NCBI RefSeq assembly: GCF_054482595.1
Contig: NZ_CM137008.1
Reading direction: 5' to 3' (one strand)
DNA length: 64,000 bases
Below, piece by piece: positions 4,371-20,860 of this stretch; the stretch's first letter is position 1, and every line of letters starts with the position of its first letter. The notes beneath the pieces were generated by a model. That model was not told where the DNA came from and ran no database searches. It saw nothing but the letters and a program-made list of their open reading frames with translations. The position numbers and the translations under genes were made by a program.

Positions 4371-4744
4371 TGTTTCGCCCACGGATGTTTACCCAGGGTA
4401 ATGTTATTTACCGTTCTGTAATTGTCGCGGGCCATCAGGCCGGTTGCCCGGCGGGCCCGGAGGATATCAATACTGTTTATTAACTGAGAACGAGTACAGA
4501 CGCTGAATCCCGGCTGGTCGGTACGCACCAGTGCGTATTTTTCAACGAGAAAGTTCACCGCATCACACAGTGAAATGCCTGCCTCAATATGCTGCTCAAT
4601 CACACGTTCATCAGCGAACGGTGTGTCATTCAGTGTGAGGCCGTAATGCTGGTCCAGCAGTCGGGTGAGCAGTGTCTGCCAGATGGTGACGGGAGACTGG
4701 CAATGCGATGCCTCCCGTACGTGTGTATCGGGTAATGTGTTCAT
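4367..4744 (-). CDS. cbtA: CbtA/YeeV-family type IV toxin (cytoskeleton-targeting)
   Basis: Start set at internal ATG 4744 ([14 protein letters not shown]...); near-identical over most of its length to K-12 CbtA as I recall it (...[52 protein letters not shown]...). The ORF-track N-extension is rejected. Confidence 0.85.
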
Positions 4745-4833
4745 ACTGAAGATTTTCCTGATATGCAGAGATGAAAAATGGAAAAGTGGCGTGGTGAAAG
4801 CACCAGGCCGGAGAAGAAGGTTATTCTGGAGAG

Positions 4834-5202
4834 TTACTTTTTCGTTTCGGGCGTCGGATAAACAGCCATATAAACGTAGCCACAACTGCCGAGGGTGTCG
4901 GCTTCGCAGGTCAGCCTTTTTGCATACAGCGTGACGGTATGCTGATGGCGGGGATTCAGTTCACCGCTGGTGAGCATGAGTTCCAGTTGTTTCATCAGCA
5001 GCGGAAAGGCCTGGTCCAGATGGTACGCATCCGCGTCGCTGAACCGGCCTCTGATACCGGCGCGGTCTGCAAGGTAATGCAACCGGTTACCCTCCTGCAC
5101 CAGACGTGCCCCAAAACAGGGCGTCACGGTGCAGGGCAGTCCCCACCAGGTGCGGTCGTTATTGTCGTCGGGAAGCGTTGTCCCGGGGAGTGTGTCTGAC
5201 AC
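4834..5202 (-). CDS. cbeA: CbeA/YeeU-family antitoxin
   Basis: 122-aa ORF immediately upstream of the toxin; [50 protein letters not shown]... matches the YeeU/YfjZ/YafW family. Confidence 0.85.
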
Positions 5203-8629: not shown

Positions 8630-9310
8630 TCACAGGTTAAAGGTGTTGATAAGTTTATGGATGAAAGAGAAATGTGGCAGGGCGGAGATAAAACGCTCTT
8701 CAGCGACCAGACTGTGGATGTGGCCTCTCCGTTCAAACCGTTCTGATGTCAGGCTGACTGATTTGATATCTGCCAGAGGAAAGACCTGCAGTTTTCCCTT
8801 CTGTAACGCGATCAGATACCAGCTACCGCTGTAATAAATGAGCCGGCAGGGCTCCAGTGACGGATACCATCGCTCAGTCATCAGAGAGATGTGGATACAC
8901 TGTCTTATTGCCAGGATGAGTTGCGAGAAACACTCGGGGAACGTTGCAGTGATATCCGGCGCCGGTAGCCAGATAAGGCAGGGAGAGGGCTCCTGGTTGT
9001 CGGTAAGACAGGTTATCAGTCGTCCGTTCCGGAGCGGAAGTATCCGTGCGATCCCGGTATTCTGTATAAAAGAAAGCATTTCAGGGATCGCACCTGGGCT
9101 GCTCTGTCGTCTGAGGCTGTACCTGCCATTTCTGTACTCTAAATCCAGGTGAACCAGACGCTGATGAAAATCGCGCTGTAAAGTACGTTCTGTAACGCCA
9201 AATTCATCTGACAGTGTTTTTAGTGACAGAGATTCTCCGGCCATCAGTCGGCTGATAATGAGTGATAAGCGAACCGCCAGGCGATCATGCCGGGAACGAT
9301 TATCAGACAT
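8630..9310 (-). CDS. WYL-domain transcriptional regulator (YfjR-like, HTH N-terminus)
   Basis: 226 aa; N-terminal HTH (LKTLSDEFGVTERTLQRDF), C-terminal region with YYSGSWYLIA, consistent with a WYL domain. Confidence 0.7.
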   Translation of the reverse strand: MSDNRSRHDRLAVRLSLIISRLMAGESLSLKTLSDEFGVTERTLQRDFHQRLVHLDLEYRNGRYSLRRQSSPGAIPEMLSFIQNTGIARILPLRNGRLITCLTDNQEPSPCLIWLPAPDITATFPECFSQLILAIRQCIHISLMTERWYPSLEPCRLIYYSGSWYLIALQKGKLQVFPLADIKSVSLTSERFERRGHIHSLVAEERFISALPHFSFIHKLINTFNL

Positions 9311-9512
9311 AGATGTGCACTCCGTAAGAAAACATCTTTTATTTCATGATGTTATTATGCATCATGATGTTGAAAGGATGTGTCGCATCCGGATAATCAG
9401 GAATAAAATGCAGCAGAAAAAATATTCTTTTAATTATCTGATTTTTAAGCATGATTTCATAAAAAGAAGAATGCTCGTTAATCCAGCGACACATCCTGTC
9501 GGCGTGAGTGTG

Positions 9513-10397
9513 TCAGAACAGACGCTCCCACAGTGTGATCAGCAGGTGGATAATGCGGTCCCGGGCTTTACGCAGAAGCTGTAACATCCAGGCCGGAAAA
9601 CTGAAACGGGCAACGGCGACGTCAAAACTTTTCCCGATGGTTTCACCAAAAGTCTGTTGTGCGTGTTTCTGGGCCTGTTCAGAGCGGTTTTCTCCCCGGA
9701 TATGTGAATACACCGCGCTGGTTGCCTGTGGTGGCAGTGCGTGGATCATCAGCGACACAAACGCCGGAAGGTTCCAGCCGACAGGTGCAGCAACGGAGAG
9801 TACCGGAAATGATGAAGGGAACAGGGTTGCCACCCGGGCTGTCACCGTCGCCAGTGAGAGCGCCTGCTGACGGGACGGGCATTTTTCTGTGGCATTCCAT
9901 TCTTCAGCAGGAAACACGCGATCGGCATGGCTGAGAACAAACAGAAAACGCGAGGGATCTGCGCCTTCATTCAGTAAAAACTGATGCATGGTAATGTCGG
10001 CGGCATACGCGCGTTCATCTGCCCGCAGGATCCAGATAATCAAATCCACTTCCGGCAGTAACTGACGGTAAAGCGCCCGGTATTCCTGATCATGTTGCGG
10101 CGTCTCTCCAATGCCGGGCAGATCGACCAGCGTCATTCTGCGTTCACCGATCTGCAGGGTAAGACGATGAGCCTGGCGGGTGCAGCCGTTCAGGGGATGT
10201 GTGGCACAGATATGGGACTGAAAAATAGCATTACACAGGCTACTTTTGCCGGTGCCGGATTTACCCATAATGCCAATCACGGGTTCGTAATGAATAACGC
10301 TGTGGAGATGTTCAAGAATTTTCTGACGAATTTCTTCAGGAAGAAACGTCAGATATGATTTCACTTGTGCGGAGAGGGAAGAATGGCTGAATGACAT
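9513..10397 (-). CDS. GTPase of YfjP/YkfA family (50S-ribosome-binding GTPase-like)
   Basis: 294 aa with P-loop GIMGKSGTGKSS and G3 DLPGIGE. Confidence 0.8.
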   Translation of the reverse strand: MSFSHSSLSAQVKSYLTFLPEEIRQKILEHLHSVIHYEPVIGIMGKSGTGKSSLCNAIFQSHICATHPLNGCTRQAHRLTLQIGERRMTLVDLPGIGETPQHDQEYRALYRQLLPEVDLIIWILRADERAYAADITMHQFLLNEGADPSRFLFVLSHADRVFPAEEWNATEKCPSRQQALSLATVTARVATLFPSSFPVLSVAAPVGWNLPAFVSLMIHALPPQATSAVYSHIRGENRSEQAQKHAQQTFGETIGKSFDVAVARFSFPAWMLQLLRKARDRIIHLLITLWERLF

Positions 10398-10581
10398 ACC
10401 GGTATCCTGTTGATTTCACTGAACCGGATCACACTAATCCGGTTTATCATTCAGGTAATATGGACGTGAAAAATGATGGAATGTCTGAATTACGGATATT
10501 ATTGTTAAAGTGTAATGGAGTATGAAGTGAGTTTTTCAGAACGGGAACTAATGACATACTGCGGTTTCAGGAGATGAGAGG

Positions 10582-11712
10582 ATGACCGGACGTAAAAACA
10601 AATGCGTCAGAAAAAATTGTAACAATCAGGTTTTCTCAGTAAAAATGGCAGTGGAGAAAAGACTGTGCAGAAAACATTATGAGAGGTTTTGTGAGCTCAA
10701 AAAAAGAAGAGAGCAAAATCCTGTTCACAGATTAAATGAAGCATTGCCAAGAAAGATAAAAGGACCCAAAAGTAAGAAAAAATTAGTAAAAGAAAGAGAA
10801 ATCATTAACAGCAGGAAGAAACATAAACAGGAGCAGGGACCATCGCTGGTTGAACTTAATAAAAAAGTTCGTGAGATACTGAAAACTCCGGCATGGAGAA
10901 CGCTGGAAACGAGAATTCGAAGAAACGGTATCACATTTAAATCAAAAGCAGAGTTAGATGTACTTTCTGAACTTTATGCAATTTATTCATGGGTTTCATA
11001 TTGCAAACGGAGCGATAATTATTCTGTGTGGTTTTTGAATTGTCCGGATGTAAATATAAATCTTCATGTGTGCGAATGCAGGTCTTCTGAAAGCGATTGT
11101 TATCTACCATCCCGTTTTATTATTCTTCCAGCTCCATTAAGGCAAAAAGTAAAAAGAAAATACCCTGCTAATTCGTCTGGAGTGTCAGGATATAGTGATT
11201 CAAAAAGTCTTTATAAGACTGTTTTGTCTGTTTGTGGTGGGAAAAGAGAAACCGAATTGTTCTTTTATTCACTGCCAGTAAAGACTAATCATCATCCTTA
11301 CTGGATTAAAAGTGGTGTGGTTAAAAGATTTCCGCCTATTTTTGGCTTGTTGTTTTATGAACAGGAAAGGTTAACAGGAGGTGTTTTTCGTTATGTGTTG
11401 ATAAAGTTTTATAATGCTTTTAAGGAGAATTTGTTTTTTGTTGAGATTATCTCGTGCTGTTTTCTTGTTGAGTTTTTTCATGATATTGATTCATTTTTTA
11501 TAAATCAACGATTAAGTAAGTTGGAAATTTTTATAGATAAGTGGAGGGAGGGTAAAGAAATCTGGATAAAAGCATATCTACAACTGATACATAATGCATT
11601 GGGAATAACTGAAACAGAAAAACTCGTCAATCTATATAATTCATTTTTTACTGATAAAGTGGTTCTCTGGGATGAATCAGTAAAAAAAGTTAAGTGGATT
11701 TATGAGAAATAG
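10582..11712 (+). CDS. hypothetical protein, Cys-rich basic N-terminus, strongly AT-rich gene
   Basis: 376-aa ORF with GGA RBS-like purines upstream; N-terminal C-x5-C...C-x-K-H-x4-C cluster and K/R-rich stretch; no recognised domain; divergent from the GTPase gene. Confidence 0.5.
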   Translation: MTGRKNKCVRKNCNNQVFSVKMAVEKRLCRKHYERFCELKKRREQNPVHRLNEALPRKIKGPKSKKKLVKEREIINSRKKHKQEQGPSLVELNKKVREILKTPAWRTLETRIRRNGITFKSKAELDVLSELYAIYSWVSYCKRSDNYSVWFLNCPDVNINLHVCECRSSESDCYLPSRFIILPAPLRQKVKRKYPANSSGVSGYSDSKSLYKTVLSVCGGKRETELFFYSLPVKTNHHPYWIKSGVVKRFPPIFGLLFYEQERLTGGVFRYVLIKFYNAFKENLFFVEIISCCFLVEFFHDIDSFFINQRLSKLEIFIDKWREGKEIWIKAYLQLIHNALGITETEKLVNLYNSFFTDKVVLWDESVKKVKWIYEK

Positions 11713-12252
11713 CACCATTTAACTGAAAGCTACCATAACGTCTTTTTGATCACACGCATGATAATGCGTCTCATTTAAATTTCGTTTTTTGGGTCATGGA
11801 AATTTTCCGAACATCAGTGATAATGAGGGTTTTGTTGTTTTTGTTTCTGCAATGTTTGAGGGCTGTTCCTGGAGACGATTCGTTGCTTGTGAGCAAGTGG
11901 TGGTCCGCTTTACTGGACGAGTTTTGCATTTGTTGAGTGGTGAAATGGAAGTAAAAAGAGCCCCTTTCTGGCAATGACTGAAAAAGTCAGTAGCGTGTAA
12001 CAGTAAAAACTAACATAAAGTGATTATCGTATGATTATGACAATAACTTATAACTTTTATGAAAAGAACAACAGAAACTACGAAGCCATAACAGATTCCT
12101 GAGACCATGTTTTCTGAGGTAGAGAAAATAATTCAAGAGTAAACCAGTTTGTTTTTTGGTCAGTAAAGAACCATGCCTGATGTGAAAACGGGTAATCAAC
12201 ATTCAGTCTGCATGGATGTTTGGAAGAGTTGAGAATGTCGGTATGATACTAT

Positions 12253-12360
12253 ATACACGTATTTTTACTAAGCATTTCAGTAAGTGTTATACACGTATTT
12301 TTACTAAGCATTTCAGTAAGTGTTATACACGTATTTTCATAAACACTTCTACAAGTGTTT
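12253..12360. repeat. tandem direct repeats (2 perfect 36-bp units plus a degenerate third)
   Basis: ATACACGTATTTTTACTAAGCATTTCAGTAAGTGTT at 12253-12288 and 12289-12324, then a diverged copy beginning ATACACGTATTTTCATAAACACTT. Confidence 0.85.
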
Positions 12361-13228
12361 TCGTTAAGCATTGCTATACACATCCAGTTTAGTAAATCTT
12401 TACGTTAACTAAATCAGTTTAATGCTGCTGTAAAACCTTTCTGCTTCAGCAATCAATCTGCTATTCGATTTTACTGATGTTACGTTTAACCTTTCCTGAT
12501 ATTTCGAGTTTCGACGTTAGCATGAGAAAAGTATCTTTACGCTAAATCAACCCGAACTTTCCTGAAGTAATCTGACGTTCTTTTCGATGTGCTTACGACG
12601 ATTCTGTTAAACGACTTTCTGGATGTTTTGATAACAATCAGATTTAGGCATTAACGATTCCTGACGTTTTTCTTTTCCGTGTAAGGTCATTGTTTTCGTC
12701 ATGATGTGACTCTTCTTGCATTGCGAAAGTGTGATGAACGGTTTTGGTGTTTTGATTCAGATGAAGTTTACGTTATCGATGGTTAATCGTTTTTATGGTG
12801 CGTAGTGAAACGTAACGCTTTCAGGAAGGGAAAATCGATTCTGATGGGGATGATCGTGTAACGGCGTTATCTGTAAACAGGTTTTAAACATGTCATTCGC
12901 ATCCGTGATTAAGTTGTGTGATTAAGCTGTAGGTTTTGGCGTTGTTGTTGATTTGCATTACCAGGAAGCGTTCTGGTTGCGTTTCTGGTGTTTTGTTTGA
13001 ATGTTCTGTGGATCCTTTTCCCTTCTGACTTTTCTCGTTGTCCATGTCGTTTTTAAATCCATTCGCTGTTCTTGAGTGTTTTTACCCTGTGTGTAGGATT
13101 ATCTTTTTGTTCCGTTTCAATCACTCTTAATCAGAAAGTTGTAGCATTGCTCAATGCCGGATGCCGTAAAGTTTTACCGCGGTGATTAATGATGTGAAGT
13201 CAATCCAAATCAACGGAGATCTCTCATC

Positions 13229-13960
13229 ATGAATCAACCAATACACAATGCTTACTGGTTATCCCGTTTTGAAAGTATTCTCAACGGTGCCCTGGCGCAA
13301 CACCGTGCCGTCTCGTTAATCCGGGTGGATTTACGTTTCCCTGAGTATATGCCTGCCACCATCATGGATACCGATTTAGATTCAGCGGTGATTTCTCGTT
13401 TTTTTGCATCCCTGAAAGCAAAAATTCAGGCTTACCAGCGGAAAAAACGACGTGCCAACAAGCGTGTGCGTGCAACCACTCTGCGTTATTTCTGGTGTCG
13501 GGAGTTTGGCAAGGAAAAAGGCAGGAAACATTATCACGTGATATTACTGCTCAACAAAGATACCTGGTGCTCGCCAGGGGATTTCACCGTTCCTTCTTCG
13601 CTGGCGACGCTGATCCAACTGGCATGGTGCAGTGCTCTGCATCTTGAGCCCTGGCAGGGTAATGGACTGGTTCACTTTTCCAGGCGGACGCCTTTCCGTA
13701 AACCGACATCATCTGATGCTCGCCCTTCTTCCGATGATACGCCTGTGCCTGGTGGATGTTCTGATACCCGGAAGGATTCTGACAAAAAATCTGGTGGATC
13801 CGCTGTTCTCTGGGTCAAGCGTGGTGATGTGGAAGCGATGCAGAAAGCCATGGAGAGAGCCCGTTATCTCGTGAAGTATGAGACGAAGCAGCATGACGGT
13901 TCTGGTCAACGTAATTATGGTTGCAGTCGTGGGCTGGGGCGTCTACTGGATGGCAGGTGA
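13229..13960 (+). CDS. YagK/YfjJ-family protein (inovirus Gp2-like family of CP4 islands)
   Basis: 243 aa; MNQPIHNAYWLSRFESILNGAL...HYHVILLLNKD; paralogous to the ORF at 19172-19738. Confidence 0.7.
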   Translation: MNQPIHNAYWLSRFESILNGALAQHRAVSLIRVDLRFPEYMPATIMDTDLDSAVISRFFASLKAKIQAYQRKKRRANKRVRATTLRYFWCREFGKEKGRKHYHVILLLNKDTWCSPGDFTVPSSLATLIQLAWCSALHLEPWQGNGLVHFSRRTPFRKPTSSDARPSSDDTPVPGGCSDTRKDSDKKSGGSAVLWVKRGDVEAMQKAMERARYLVKYETKQHDGSGQRNYGCSRGLGRLLDGR

Positions 13961-14287
13961 ACCCTGTAAAACAGCATCCGATGCCTGAGTTTATGCCAAC
14001 GCCCTTAGCTCGCTTTCTGAAAAGTCGTCCTGAAGTAATGCAATGGATTGCCATCTACTTCCGTTCGTGACACATAAGTCGAAAAACCTTTGGTTGTTCT
14101 GGTTATTTGCATTTACTGCCATTCATAGAAATGAACAGATCGATTGGTAGGACTCAAATGTTATAGCGTCTCTCTTCTCATAGTCTGCTTTGTACCAGAC
14201 GCGGAATCCCCTAATGCTGGTGTACAGGTTCTGACTCATTTCCTCCCCCACTTTCATCCCGTTATACTGTGAAAAAAGGAGGTAGGC

Positions 14288-15166
14288 GTGAAACTGAAAA
14301 TGCAGGATTTGAGGCTGTTTAATATTGTGTTCGAGAGCGATCCTGGCTGGATACTGGATTTCTCTAACCGCACCTTGTCTGCTTTTTTCGATGAAGAATT
14401 GAACATTGATATTGATGATGAACGTTATCAGAAAGAGGGGACGTCAAAAGCCAAACGAGTTAGATGCTTGCTGAAACAGGTTGATCGTGAGACCGCTCTG
14501 CGGGTTCTTGGTGCGCTCTGGCAGTATAAAACGGAATCCATGCCTGAACAGGCTGAACAAAGCCGTAATGACTATCTTGCACTGATTTCCCGCTTAGAAA
14601 ACGCTGACACCGATGAAGCCAAAGGCGTTAAGCCTGTCCAGGCATGGCATGGTGTTGACTGGCATTCACTTATCGCTGAAATGAACGAGATGAAATCTCT
14701 GCCGCCACATCCACGTGGTTTTCGGTTTGAAGCCTGGCTTGCTGAACTGTTCAGTATCTTTAAGCTTGCTCCCCGTTCGTCTTTCCGAAATACAGGCGAA
14801 CAGATTGACGGAAGTTTCCGACTGAATGATGAATTTTACCTGATGGAGGCAAAGTGGCATCAGAAAAGAACGTCGGCTGCCGACCTCCATGTATTTGAAG
14901 GAAAGCTCAGTACCAAGGCAACCTGGACACGCGGTGTTTTTATCAGTTGGATGGGCTTTACGCCTGAAGGCCTGACGGCTTTTGGTAAAGGGAAGCGGGT
15001 TATCTGTGTCAGTGGTTATGATCTTTACCACTCACTGAATCATAGGATCCCTTTACCCGACCTTCTGGATGCTAAAACCCGGCACGCGGCTGAAACGGGA
15101 GAGCCCTATGCTGAGTTCGACCGACTATATGCACTGAAAGACAAACAGTTCGGCACGCTGAAATAA
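14288..15166 (+). CDS. Mrr-like (PD-(D/E)xK) restriction-endonuclease-domain protein with unrelated N-terminal domain
   Basis: GTG 14288 preceded by AGGAGG (alternative ATG 14300). C-terminal GEQIDGSF...[10 protein letters not shown]...[11 protein letters not shown] parallels the Mrr catalytic region (GDGGIDG...VQAKRW...RGVFITTSGFT) as I recall it. Confidence 0.6.
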
Positions 15167-15180
15167 CGGGTTGGGAAGCG

Positions 15181-15794
15181 ATGACCTGCTCCCCGTTGTT
15201 TCACACAGAATCGTGTACAGGGTCGAAGTTCTGGCTCAATGTGCTGACTGAACTGAAAAACCGCGGTCTGAACGATATCCTCATCACCTGTGTAGATAGC
15301 CTGAAAGGCTTTCCAGATGCCATCAACACAGTATATCCGGAGGCCAGCATCCAGTTATGCATCGTGCATATGGTGCGCAACAGCCTGCGCTTCGTGTCAT
15401 GGAAGGACTACAAAGCCGTCACTCGCGACCTGAAAGAGATTTAATCAGGCACCCACGGAAGAGACAGGCTAGCAAGCACTAGATAAGTCGGAGCTGGCAG
15501 GCTAACTGACCGAATCTTACCACGTTCTTCGCTTATCTGACGGACATTCGCAAAGTGCGCTATACGACGAATGCCATCGAGTCACTAAACAGTGTGATCC
15601 GCCATGCGATCAAAAAGCGTAAAGTGTTCCCGACAGACGACTCGGTGAAAAAAGTGGTGTGGCTGGCAATCCAGTCTGCGTCCCAGAAATGGACGGTGTC
15701 GTTGAAGGACAGGTGTATGGCAATGAGCCGCTTTATTATCGAGTTCGGTGACTGCCTGTCACTTCTGAAAAAAGGCATTTACACAGAATCCTAA
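15181..15794 (+). pseudogene. IS256-family (mutator-type) transposase, fragmented
   Basis: Two ORF pieces (15181-15444, 15555-15794) with [18 protein letters not shown] and TTNAIESLNSVIR; N-terminal part missing. Confidence 0.65.
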
Positions 15795-15914
15795 ACAGGT
15801 TCCGACATTCCCCACTCATACTAAACACCTTGTCACTTGACGCAGGGCTGAACATTTTACAACAACGGTATACCAATATGATATTGGTTTACTAAATTTT
15901 TTGGGAATCCCTCA

Positions 15915-16794
15915 GGGAATTTCTCCCTATACTTCCAGACATCTGTTATCATTTAACCCATTACTGATCCGCTGCCGCATATATACCTGCGGCGAGCGAT
16001 AACTTAGAACTATGCTGCATTGTAATGTTCGATTGCTACTGCATGGTTATGCAATGCCGTCATTAACATCTGGCTTGGGCATGAACACGATGTAGTCACG
16101 CTTTATCGTTTTCACGAAGCTCTCTGCTATTCTGTTACTCTCCGGACTCCGCACCGCCGTGTTCTTCGATTCAAGTCCCAACATCCGAGCGAACTGGCGT
16201 GTTTCATTAGCCCGGTAGCATGAACCATTATCTGTCAGCCACTCCACTGGAGACGCCGGAAGCTCGTTGCCGAAGCGGCGTTCCACCGCTCCTGGCATGA
16301 CGTCCTGTACTGTTTCACTGTTGAAGCCGCCGGTAGTGACCGCCCAGTGCATCACCCCGGCAATAAGGGAGCGTGCGCTATCCACTTTTTGCACGTCCAT
16401 ATTCAACGGCTTCTTTAATGAGTTCATTTTCCATCGTTTTGTTCCGGGCAGGCGCTGGCGTTCTTTAATCTGCCTTATGGCAGCAGCAAGTTCAGAGGCA
16501 GGAACGATCTGTTCCCCAGCAGTCACCGCAGTAAGACTTCCCTCCTGGTATTGCTTGCGCCAGAGAAGTAACTGGCTGCTACACCATGTTGCCGGGCAAC
16601 GAGGGAGACCGTCATTCCTGGTTCAAAGCTCTTCTGAACATTAGCGATCTTTTCCTGTGCAGTATGCCGTCTGAGTTTCTCCGGTCCTGAGGCATCAATC
16701 ATCTGTTTTCCAATGACCAGTCTAAAAACTAATATTAAGATTATCACTTATTTAAGTGATATTGGTTGACTGGAGATTCAGGGGGCTAGCCTAT
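15915..16794 (-). mobile_element. IS2 remnant with internal deletion (~880 bp vs 1331 bp)
   Basis: IRR-like end ...CCCTATACTTCCAGACATCTGTTATCATTTAACCC near 15915 and IRL GGAGATTCAGGGGGCTAGCCTA at 16773-16794; InsC-like N-terminus (16523-16747) and truncated InsD-like ORF (16047-16526). Confidence 0.75.
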
Positions 16795-16922
16795 CCGGGA
16801 AAGTTCACTCACTTTGAATGAAGTAAATATTAAGTATCACATTTTGTGATGTAGCCATTATTTTTATAAAAAATCACCTGATAGGATTTATCATAAGTTA
16901 ATGATAAGCAGAGTATTGATAG

Positions 16923-17363
16923 ATGAGCAAGAAGAAGTTTTCTGTTGAGAATGAAGATCTCTCTACTGTTCGTACATCACTTCTTAATTCCAACCTTGTC
17001 CGGAAGTTGATCATGGAAATGTCTGATGAAGACTTCAATCAAGTTAAGGATAACCTTGAAAAGGCCATTGAGCAGCGTAATGAGTTGAAGGATTCTTTGG
17101 CAATTATCAAAAAGTACATGGATGACGCAGGTGTAACGGCGGAAGATGTGTATCGTGAATTTGGCAAAAAATTACAGACGGGCAGAAAAAACGATTCAGG
17201 AGAGTCTAATAAGTACAGGTATGAGTATAACGGTCAAATAATGTACTGGAGTGGACAAGGTCGTCGGCCTTCTGTTATTGCAGAAGCAATAAAAGCCGGA
17301 GGTTCTCTTGATGATTTTCTTATATCTCAGGGCACATCATCATCTTGTTCTGATTATGAGTGA
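16923..17363 (+). CDS. H-NS-family nucleoid-associated protein (xenogeneic-silencer paralog)
   Basis: 146 aa; C-terminal YRYEYNGQIMYWSGQGRRPSVIAEAIKAGGSLDDFLI matches the H-NS DNA-binding domain signature; coiled-coil N-terminus. Confidence 0.85.
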   Translation: MSKKKFSVENEDLSTVRTSLLNSNLVRKLIMEMSDEDFNQVKDNLEKAIEQRNELKDSLAIIKKYMDDAGVTAEDVYREFGKKLQTGRKNDSGESNKYRYEYNGQIMYWSGQGRRPSVIAEAIKAGGSLDDFLISQGTSSSCSDYE

Positions 17364-19171: not shown

Positions 19172-19738
19172 ATGCCTAAATCTTACACACCAAACTGGTT
19201 TTTTACCGCTTTACTTGACAATCACATCAATCAAATGATGGCACGCTATTCCTGCCTGCGGGCCTTACGCATGGATTTCTTCTACAGGAAAGATACGCCT
19301 GATTTCTTACAACCTGATCATCGCTGGCTTGAATTGCAGTTGCGTATGCTGCTGGAGCAGGTGGAACAATTTGAAAATATCGTTGGCTTCTTCTGGGTGA
19401 TTGAATGGACGGCTGATCATGGTTTTCATGCGCATGCGGTTTTCTGGATCGATCGTCAGAGGGTTAAAAAAATATATCCCTTTGCGGAGCGGATTACGGA
19501 ATGCTGGCGGTCTATTACGCATAACAGTGGTTCGGCACACCGCTGTACATATCAGCCGCATTATACATACAACATCAACATTCCTGTGCGCCACAACGAT
19601 CCTGAAAGCATCGATAATATTCGCGGTGCCCTGCATTATCTGGCGAAAGAAGAACAAAAAGACGGGCTGTGTGCCTACGGCTGCAATGAAGTTCCTGAAC
19701 GTCCTGCTGCAGGGCGTCCTCGTAAGCCTCACTTCTGA
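19172..19738 (+). CDS. YagK/YfjJ-family protein (second paralog)
   Basis: 188 aa; MPKSYTPNWFFTALLDNHINQMMARYSCLRALRMDFFYRKD...HAHAVFWIDRQ; AT-rich upstream region 18200-19170. Confidence 0.7.
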   Translation: MPKSYTPNWFFTALLDNHINQMMARYSCLRALRMDFFYRKDTPDFLQPDHRWLELQLRMLLEQVEQFENIVGFFWVIEWTADHGFHAHAVFWIDRQRVKKIYPFAERITECWRSITHNSGSAHRCTYQPHYTYNINIPVRHNDPESIDNIRGALHYLAKEEQKDGLCAYGCNEVPERPAAGRPRKPHF

Positions 19739-20626: not shown

Positions 20627-20860
20627 ATGTTGACCACAACAAGCCACGACAGCGTATTGCTGCGTGCCGACGATCCCCTGATCGACATGAACTACATCAC
20701 CAGTTTCACCGGTATGACCGATAAATGGTTTTACAAGCTGATCAGTGAAGGTCATTTCCCTAAACCCATCAAACTGGGGCGTAGCAGCCGCTGGTACAAA
20801 AGTGAAGTGGAGCAGTGGATGCAGCAGCGAATTGAGGAATCACGAGGAGCAGCAGCATGA
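20627..20860 (+). CDS. AlpA-family phage/island transcriptional regulator (HTH)
   Basis: ...ITSFTGMTDKWFYKLISEGHFPKPIKLGRSSRWYKSEVEQWM fits the AlpA pattern; alternative start at ATG 20687. Confidence 0.75.
   Translation: MLTTTSHDSVLLRADDPLIDMNYITSFTGMTDKWFYKLISEGHFPKPIKLGRSSRWYKSEVEQWMQQRIEESRGAAA

Follow-up and report, generated by a model that had tools for sequence, protein, structure and literature searches.

HUH Rep proteins typically bind direct repeats beside or within their own promoters. Binding of tandem direct repeats is established for RepB of plasmid pMV158, parvovirus NS1/Rep and geminivirus Rep, and several HUH Rep systems have repeats that lie across the rep promoter and take part in autoregulation as well. 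Here we describe a non-coding region from a CP4-type integrative island of Escherichia coli, contained in a stretch of 64,000 nt (the window; contig NZ_CM137008.1 of RefSeq assembly GCF_054482595.1), that lies directly upstream of a gene of the YagK/YfjJ ("inovirus Gp2") family and carries a tandem array. It resembles the distal and proximal direct repeats (DDR/PDR) of pMV158, the iterons of geminivirus/CRESS Reps and the (ACCA)n and (GAGC)n repeats of parvoviruses in that tandem repeats of about the size of a helical turn stand upstream of the gene for a predicted single-tyrosine HUH nickase, and the fold matches of the neighbouring protein agree with this likeness. Unlike the "bind" loci of HUH Reps, the window array has no conserved nick hairpin, is built from two module types, is very polymorphic and sits on a chromosomal island, with paralogues of the gene lacking arrays.

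Other described systems are similar in part. As in the intergenic (IG) region upstream of gene II in Ff phages, a long non-coding region that is T-rich on the plus strand precedes an "inovirus Gp2 family"/REP_ORF2-G2P gene; the Ff region has strong conserved hairpins, whereas the window region has no structure above shuffles on either strand and no similarity to phage sequence. AlpA of Pseudomonas aeruginosa, whose element lies between -35 and -10, bypasses a terminator further downstream (PMC7969949). Like PalpB-tB-alpBCDE of that organism, the window combines a candidate promoter whose spacer is conserved with a long putative leader that contains a terminator-like hairpin, and the element that carries them also encodes an AlpA-family protein. 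It differs in that the published binding motif is absent and the terminator is weak and without covariation support.

We tentatively read the stretch as the upstream control region of the HUH nickase gene, in which a promoter-linked, iteron- or operator-like array, putatively bound by a protein, would be combined with a long, neutrally evolving leader or spacer. The observations that favour this reading are the HUH neighbour, a shared module with a sharp left edge, a conserved promoter-like block, an array present in every allele, a private duplication whose unit is flanked by direct repeats, strand skew, a maintained length and a conserved translation initiation block.

The gap and the unit shared among related islands

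The gap spans 11713-13228 (1,516 nt), and RefSeq annotation of 99.5%-identical genomes places no feature there. A first-pass annotation had put a 1.3-kb non-coding leader at 11980-13228; the region is indeed non-coding, and the true gap is larger. It had also described the interval as AT-rich and free of open reading frames (ORFs) of 60 residues or more, and both statements hold. The longest ORFs within 11980-13228 have 58 (12216-12392, plus strand), 55 (12035-12202, minus strand) and 50 residues (12893-13045, minus strand), two TTG-start ORFs of 62 and 67 residues terminate just left of 11980, and the GC content of the gap is 0.29-0.40 versus 0.51 in the downstream gene.

Of 5,426 complete E. 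coli genomes, 1,879 gave megablast matches to the gap, the median being two places in each such genome and the maximum twelve; copies in the complete genomes number approximately 3,700. Many of the matches begin at about query position 409 of the gap. In an alignment of twelve loci that are spread over the identity range and were not selected for conserved motifs (alignment A1), homology starts sharply at 12125 (AAAATAATTC.AGAGTAAA) and continues through the start codon, while sequence left of 12125 is unrelated where the islands differ in their upstream genes. Within the gap, only 12125-13228 is common to related islands. The variable non-coding segment at 11713-12124, to which no strand is assigned, travels with the upstream cargo gene (10582-11712) and is not common to islands with other cargo. 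The left boundary of the conserved unit is formed by AAAATAATTCAAGAGTAAAC (12125-12144, plus strand), which has near-invariant columns in alignment A1; the nucleotide diversity (pi) of 0.049 for this segment derives from a sequence set that had been selected on that very motif.

A metagenome scan with an invariant 27-mer gave 118 further stretches, which together with the genome loci amount to 97 distinct upstream sequences. Gene order is constant in the annotated contexts: a GTPase gene, variable cargo, about 1.1 kb of non-coding DNA, the "inovirus Gp2 family" gene and variable cargo again, the latter encoding a restriction enzyme, a TIR protein, IreA or an acyltransferase. The shared module, from 12125 to approximately 14049, comprises the non-coding region, the HUH gene and some 90 nt beyond it, and is sharply delimited, the cargo on either side being unrelated between islands, which suggests that 12125 and approximately 14049 are two cargo-exchange hotspots flanking a conserved unit. 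No terminal direct or inverted repeats of the kind that would join the two edges as transposon-like ends were found.

The non-coding length of about 1.1 kb is maintained in alleles diverging by 14-25%. Group-2 islands (E. coli 042 and L016) have 12765-13088 (324 nt) swapped for approximately 1.2 kb holding a 176-residue ORF on the strand opposite to the HUH gene (L140, which is E. coli 042, 4667-5197; L016, 2590-3787). This ORF has only weak, sub-threshold matches (NikA-like, E 0.011; PHROG "D5-like regulator", E 0.002). Because group-2 islands substitute this segment, the middle of the gap is dispensable or exchangeable. Outside chromosomes, the conserved 27-mer has no match in a viral contig collection and the region none in a phage collection; 4 plasmid records contain it, and inspection of one of them showed the segment to be part of an IncF plasmid and not an excised island. 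K-12 was dropped as a model, as its yagK and yfjJ genes have upstream gaps of only 271 and 152 nt and the region has no counterpart there. One contig labelled as a Bacillota metagenome-assembled genome (L015, JAEYLX010000008.1) encodes an 86%-identical copy of the E. coli-type protein, which is probably a binning or contamination artefact.

Repeat array, promoter-like block and initiation block

Tandem Repeats Finder (TRF) reports a 36-bp tandem repeat at 12252-12337 on the plus strand, with period 36, 2.4 copies, 100% matches and the consensus TATACACGTATTTTTACTAAGCATTTCAGTAAGTGT. Perfect copies occupy 12252-12287 and 12288-12323, and of a third copy the initial 14 nt (12324-12337) are perfect, the rest being shifted in register by 1 nt and 73% identical as far as about 12359. 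The two perfect copies and the degenerate one reported earlier are therefore present as described, from a start at 12252, the earlier coordinate being off by one. A perfect periodic match of 86 nt cannot be due to chance. The duplicated 36-nt unit is limited to the window: none of 66 related arrays has it, the best RefSeq matches among complete E. coli genomes are all 36 nt shorter than the duplicated form, and the closest relatives, for example SMS-3-5 and also L001, are shorter by exactly 36 nt. Since these relatives are single-copy and none of the top matches is duplicated, the comparison identifies the perfect repeat as a recent, private slippage or unequal-crossover duplication inside an older polymorphic array. 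As in slipped-strand minisatellites, the copies are perfect and head-to-tail, the 36-nt unit of single-copy alleles is bounded by a 14-nt direct repeat (TATACACGTATTTT) and copy number is polymorphic among close relatives, so that all features of a slipped-strand tandem duplication are found. Unlike a plain minisatellite, the duplication lies within an older array whose anchors and adjoining promoter-like block are conserved, and for that reason the locus would not be just any slippage site.

The older array (12252-12400, plus strand) consists of degenerate modules of approximately 12 nt, ATACACGT and nnTAAGyrTT, with sites of the ATACAC(G/A)T type. It was compared in 66 sequences that possess both fixed anchors, GGTATGATACTATA and ACACATCCAGTTT, and the module forms ATACAC(G/A)TATTTT and nnTAAG(C/T)(A/G)TT occur in all of them. 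Between the anchors, which lie 85-205 nt apart, there are 41 array variants, and many of the length steps are of 12-13 or 24 nt. Self-match peaks fall at lags 12, 24 and 35-37 in seven alleles, and TRF finds a period-12 array in the divergent group-2 island L016. Array and anchors are kept in all alleles, group 2 included, with a varying number of modules. The check on repeat copy number that the first-pass annotation had proposed thus confirms variation among related islands; as to conservation of the repeats, on which it had made its reading depend, this is true of the array of approximately 12-nt modules, found in all, and untrue of the 36-bp duplication, found in no other island.

The array starts right after a conserved promoter-like block and keeps this position even in group 2, where the HUH gene is 1.9 kb off. 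It contains a 7-bp palindrome or hairpin, AACACTT-CTAC-AAGTGTT (12342-12359, no strand assigned), that is intact, loop-inverted or broken depending on the allele; because it is not conserved, the compared alleles do not make it a convincing nick-site hairpin. Outside the array, self-BLAST gave no internal repetition above chance and no larger repeat units.

The promoter-like block (12220-12257, plus strand) holds two overlapping sigma-70-like candidates, TTGGAA-16-TATGAT (12220-12247) and TTGAGA-17-TATACA (12229-12257). It has the best conserved sigma-70-like scores on the plus strand among 39 alleles, a separate promoter scan also returned 12220-12247, and in the twelve-sequence alignment the spacer is no less conserved than the hexamers. 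No convincing promoter was found within the last 140 nt before the gene at 13229. Promoter and terminator prediction, suggested earlier as a check, yields one conserved promoter-like block, and the numbers of promoter- and terminator-like sites do not exceed chance.

The most conserved block of the whole region surrounds the ribosome-binding site (RBS) and start codon, from about -70 to +35 (13158-13263, plus strand). It contains an invariant inverted repeat, GTAAAGTTTTAC, at 13166-13177, the Shine-Dalgarno (SD) sequence GGAG at 13215-13218 and the ATG at 13229. In the unbiased twelve-sequence set its pi is 0.01-0.05, versus 0.1-0.29 upstream and 0.03-0.14 in the coding sequence (CDS), and a predicted hairpin pairs the SD sequence with the AUG (RNA fold z -1.9). 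In nucleotide sequence, the RBS region and the first 12 or so codons are conserved beyond the rest of the gene, synonymous sites included. This conservation could reflect translational control, an operator or a recombination anchor.

Base composition is asymmetric as well. Over 12125-13228 the plus strand has 23 T-tracts of 4 nt or more versus 5 A-tracts, and G exceeds C on this strand in 12701-13000. Such T>A and G>C skew would fit long-term transcription of unconstrained DNA in the plus direction.

The YagK/YfjJ protein and its relatives

The product of the gene at 13229-13960 (plus strand) matches PF11726 YagK_YfjJ_C (5.5e-37), PF23343 REP_ORF2-G2P (1.3e-9) and PHROG replication-initiation families. 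The family alignment displays the motifs IRVDLR, KHYH-hydrophobic (the HUH motif) and RAxYLxKxxTK, with H101, H103, Y213 and K216 nearly invariant. An AlphaFold model (predicted local distance difference test, pLDDT, 78) is closest to SIRV1 Rep (7.8), Helitron transposase (7.1), adeno-associated virus (AAV) Rep (6.8) and pMV158 RepB (5.6); a search of PDB sequences with the family profile gave no match. From motifs and model, the protein is predicted to be an HUH Rep-like nickase resembling rolling-circle replication initiators. The ratio of nonsynonymous to synonymous divergence (dN/dS) of the gene is about 0.3-0.4, and 13 of 97 linked copies are truncated. A literature search found no functional study of a YagK/YfjJ, PF11726 or "inovirus Gp2" protein or of its cis site; a study of Pseudomonas islands names a Gp2-like protein among the likely core genes. 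In the E. coli subfamily, a low-complexity insertion of approximately 40 residues rich in Ser, Asp, Pro and Lys (residues 153-189, pLDDT below 50) separates the core from the tyrosine motif, and relatives of approximately 190-220 residues (from other genera, YagK and YfjJ of K-12 and the second paralogue in the window) are without it.

A scan of a collection of genome contigs with this single protein returned 2 loci only. A second, distantly related YagK-like HUH gene in the window (19172-19738) encodes the motifs GFHAHAVFW and ALHYLAKEEQK, is preceded by a T-rich gap of approximately 930 nt (18240 onward) and is followed by a hypothetical ORF and then by an AlpA-family gene at 20627-20860 (PF05930, 2e-10). 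Distant relatives in Morganellaceae and Brenneria occupy the same island position and have an alpA-like gene directly after the yagK-like gene, and the order of the second YagK-like gene and the AlpA-family gene in the window matches the yagK-alpA order of those islands.

Constraint, coding potential and RNA structure

Divergence in the non-coding region equals the synonymous divergence of the linked gene: the ratio of the two (Knc/dS) is 1.05 over 405 pairs with dS of 0.1-0.2. Of the 1,100 conserved nucleotides, about 750 change as fast as synonymous sites. Low diversity is confined to blocks at 12125-12144, 12220-12257, 12377-12419, 12766-12845 and 13158-13263. Most of the remainder is unique, T-rich non-coding DNA (12401-13143, plus strand; T 38-39%) that evolves roughly at the synonymous rate, with pi of 0.05-0.34 per 20-nt block, and is putatively an untranslated leader or a spacer. 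The first-pass view that the region is more than spacer DNA consequently applies to its two ends, which differ from random spacer, and does not extend to these 750 nt, which are spacer-like.

The gap is non-coding. Across 39 alleles there is no ORF common in frame and length, and the 57-residue ORF annotated by RefSeq on the minus strand of some genomes is not conserved either. A period of 3 nt is not seen among the variable sites, lag-3 autocorrelation shows no rise, and of 80 distinct indels only 16 have lengths divisible by three. A coding gene or pseudogene was also sought by tblastn with the upstream-neighbour proteins of related islands and rejected, the best match (E 0.007 over 33 residues) being unconvincing.

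The template of a non-coding RNA, another early proposal, fared poorly as far as structured RNA is concerned. Scanning 9000-17000 against Rfam at E up to 1 produced no relevant match, only two sub-threshold chance ones, both inside the CDS. RNAalifold on 22 non-redundant alleles, in 160-column windows and on both strands, never beat column shuffles (z -1.9 to +1.5). The fold of the whole putative leader has z +1.0 against dinucleotide shuffles, and its antisense -0.2. It is possible that the region is transcribed as an unstructured leader. Folded as single-stranded DNA (ssDNA), the region gives no structure signal either (z -1.3).

Some smaller DNA-level features complete the picture. The scan for terminators returned a sole site, a hairpin with an interrupted U-tract (GUUUUGUUUG, 12959-12999, plus strand), versus 1.1 expected by chance; the hairpin is kept in 95.6% of cells, with covariation equal to that of shuffles. 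A 13-bp tandem pair, GTGATTAAGTTGT and GTGATTAAGCTGT (12905-12930, plus strand), is recognisable in 12 of 12 sequences of alignment A1. The motif GTGATTAA occurs three times in the conserved region, twice as this tandem pair and a third time at 13182-13189 just upstream of the RBS, versus 0.12 expected for GTGATTA, and (T)GATGTGA is likewise over-represented; copies of both are possible candidate sites for a binding factor. Within 12125-13228 we found no DnaA box (TTWTNCACA), integration host factor (IHF) core, ops, Chi, high-affinity H-NS motif pattern or GATC enrichment.

Island context

Left of the gap, the minus strand of the island carries genes for a cbtA/yeeU-type toxin-antitoxin system, RadC-like, antirestriction and DUF932 proteins and a YfjP-type GTPase. 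The plus-strand order is a 376-residue ORF, the gap, the YagK/YfjJ gene at 13229-13960, a gene for an Mrr-like restriction endonuclease, an H-NS paralogue and the second YagK-like gene. The 376-residue ORF (10582-11712, plus strand), directly upstream of the gap, has no match in Pfam, NCBIfam or PHROG. Its 5' part is strongly A-rich (AT skew up to +0.43), and it is one among alternative cargo genes at that position, which elsewhere holds a 407-residue ORF or an unrelated ORF pair. The H-NS-family paralogue (16923-17363; PF00816, 1.1e-11) lies between the two YagK-like units, beside their AT-rich upstream regions.

Discussion

On our preferred but tentative reading, that of an upstream control region, the conserved stretch would have three parts: a distal promoter-like block (12220-12257) joined to the module array (12252-12400), a spacer of approximately 750 nt and the RBS/start block. 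The array would be an iteron- or operator-like site for a protein. The anatomy, the pattern of conservation, the variation in copy number, the lack of coding sequence and the HUH identity of the neighbour follow from the analyses themselves; we infer that the promoter-like block fires and that the array is bound. As HUH Reps bind direct repeats near their own promoters, the adjacent HUH protein is the likeliest candidate binder, an AlpA-like or WYL helix-turn-helix regulator of the island (the latter at 8630-9310) being the alternative. The approximately 750 nt of unique T-rich sequence would drift neutrally and serve at most as an untranslated leader or spacer, and the strongly conserved block around the RBS and start codon would form the third part. 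The 36-bp pair would have arisen when one three-module unit was duplicated between the 14-nt direct repeats, through strand slippage or unequal crossover, as one step in the continuing gain and loss of modules and not as a designed feature.

Several observations weigh against such a control region. Mean pi is 0.138 in the non-coding DNA versus 0.101 at third codon positions; because of this, and with Knc/dS about 1, most of the region is unconstrained, and its conservation could reflect mere shared ancestry. The promoter candidates are consensus matches, and sites of this kind are no more numerous in the region than in shuffles. A conserved nick-site hairpin was not found. Upstream of the second YagK-like gene, as of its L004 homologue, there is a similarly long T-rich region in which no tandem array is found, and the upstream gaps of the distant relatives, 400-750 nt long and A-rich, have no tandem repeat visible on reading. 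The convergent 176-residue ORF that group-2 islands carry between array and HUH gene speaks against a simple promoter-leader-gene unit. In a mobilome study, extrachromosomal activity was not seen for the K-12 CP4 elements, which carry other alleles than the window's (bioRxiv 10.1101/2024.07.17.603846).

Part of this evidence would be expected if the region were a functionless AT-rich spacer, a horizontally acquired leftover kept by recent common descent, with a slippage-prone low-complexity array and the 36-bp duplication as a neutral polymorphism. The neutral substitution rate, the private duplication in a highly polymorphic array, the replaceable middle, the truncated HUH genes (13 of 97) and the want of a conserved structure, ORF or known motif all agree with a spacer. 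It is less easily squared with several blocks conserved well above background, with the maintenance of some 1.1 kb in divergent alleles against the deletion bias of bacteria, and with the presence of array and anchors in every allele, group 2 included; we regard a mere spacer as rather unlikely. Nucleation of H-NS, or of the island's own paralogue, on the AT-rich DNA, silencing the HUH gene and neighbouring cargo, is compatible with a control region and with the other alternatives. A GC content of 29-40% compared with about 51% in the flanking genes, the 23 T-tracts, the H-NS-family gene and the long AT-rich regions upstream of both YagK-like genes are in keeping with silencing; the region has no match to the high-affinity motif pattern tested, and AT-richness is generic for horizontally acquired DNA. 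H-NS silencing is quite conceivable, if still on the unlikely side. A structured RNA gene (a regulatory, ribozyme-like or guide RNA) would account for the presence, beside the gene of a nucleic-acid enzyme, of a long non-coding stretch that is conserved and whose 5' end holds a candidate promoter. Yet there is no Rfam match, folding of the alignment or of single sequences does no better than shuffles, substitution is neutral and no terminator delimits a gene, and we think an RNA gene very improbable.

More specific functions have also been considered. The first-pass annotation likened the repeats to iterons or an origin or regulatory platform, and the Rep-like neighbour and the retention of the array beside a promoter-like block lend this some substance, whereas the 36-bp copy is private and neither a conserved nick hairpin nor a DnaA box or IHF site was found. 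A theta-type iteron origin (oriV) was rejected, as the DnaA box and IHF core are absent and the neighbouring protein is an HUH nickase, not a RepA-type initiator. In a true origin of the HUH type, 12125-13263 would be the cis origin of the YagK/YfjJ nickases, with the array as "bind" locus and a nick site nearby, acting as a rolling-circle double-strand origin or an origin of transfer (oriT) in the replication or mobilisation of the excised island. An HUH Rep-type nickase gene with HUH and catalytic tyrosine motifs is indeed adjacent, and direct repeats are kept near it in the form of the array of approximately 12-nt modules, not of the 36-bp copy. The fold and motifs are closest to the origin-binding nickase domains of Rep proteins, a class that binds tandem direct repeats and whose members RepB and NS1 are among the fold matches; the position of the array, independent of its distance from the gene, suits a cis site better than a leader; and the group-2 ORF has its weak NikA-like match. 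However, no conserved hairpin or nick sequence lies beside the repeats, the sole local palindrome is broken in several alleles, ssDNA folding gives no signal, no arrays accompany the paralogous and distant YagK-like genes, the region is all but missing from plasmids and absent from phages, and the K-12 elements form no extrachromosomal circles in the mobilome study. An origin at this locus is thus doubtful in our judgement. The remaining alternative is an antitermination leader of the AlpA/Q type, in which an AlpA-like protein would bind the promoter spacer within 12229-12257 and carry RNA polymerase past terminators in a 970-nt leader, turning on the HUH gene. The island encodes an AlpA-family protein, distant relatives have alpA directly after their yagK-like genes, P. 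aeruginosa AlpA sets a precedent, the candidate promoter has a conserved spacer and there is a terminator-like hairpin at 12959-12999. That hairpin, though, lacks support from covariation and is followed by a poor U-tract. Terminator-like sites show no enrichment, GGGACGN5GGTA, the element published for AlpA, does not occur in the window sequence (compared by eye), and group-2 islands carry a convergent ORF in the leader; we consider antitermination improbable.

If the control region is functional, it would be a repeat array beside a Rep-like gene, of an already known type. If the HUH protein neither binds nor nicks the array, the latter would represent ordinary slippage polymorphism in an AT-rich spacer, and a warning that a striking perfect repeat can be private and recent. 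YagK/YfjJ genes are among the core genes of very common genomic islands of enterobacteria and pseudomonads, which carry virulence, toxin-antitoxin and anti-phage cargo, and the array is the only iterated, positionally conserved DNA beside the HUH nickase gene, which narrows the search for its cis site. If the HUH protein binds or nicks the array, this would provide a handle on the control, replication or mobilisation of these "cryptic" islands. Should the origin reading hold, CP4-type "cryptic prophage" islands would carry a working rolling-circle or conjugative-mobilisation module (oriT plus a Rep-like relaxase), which would help to explain their wide spread and multi-copy state.

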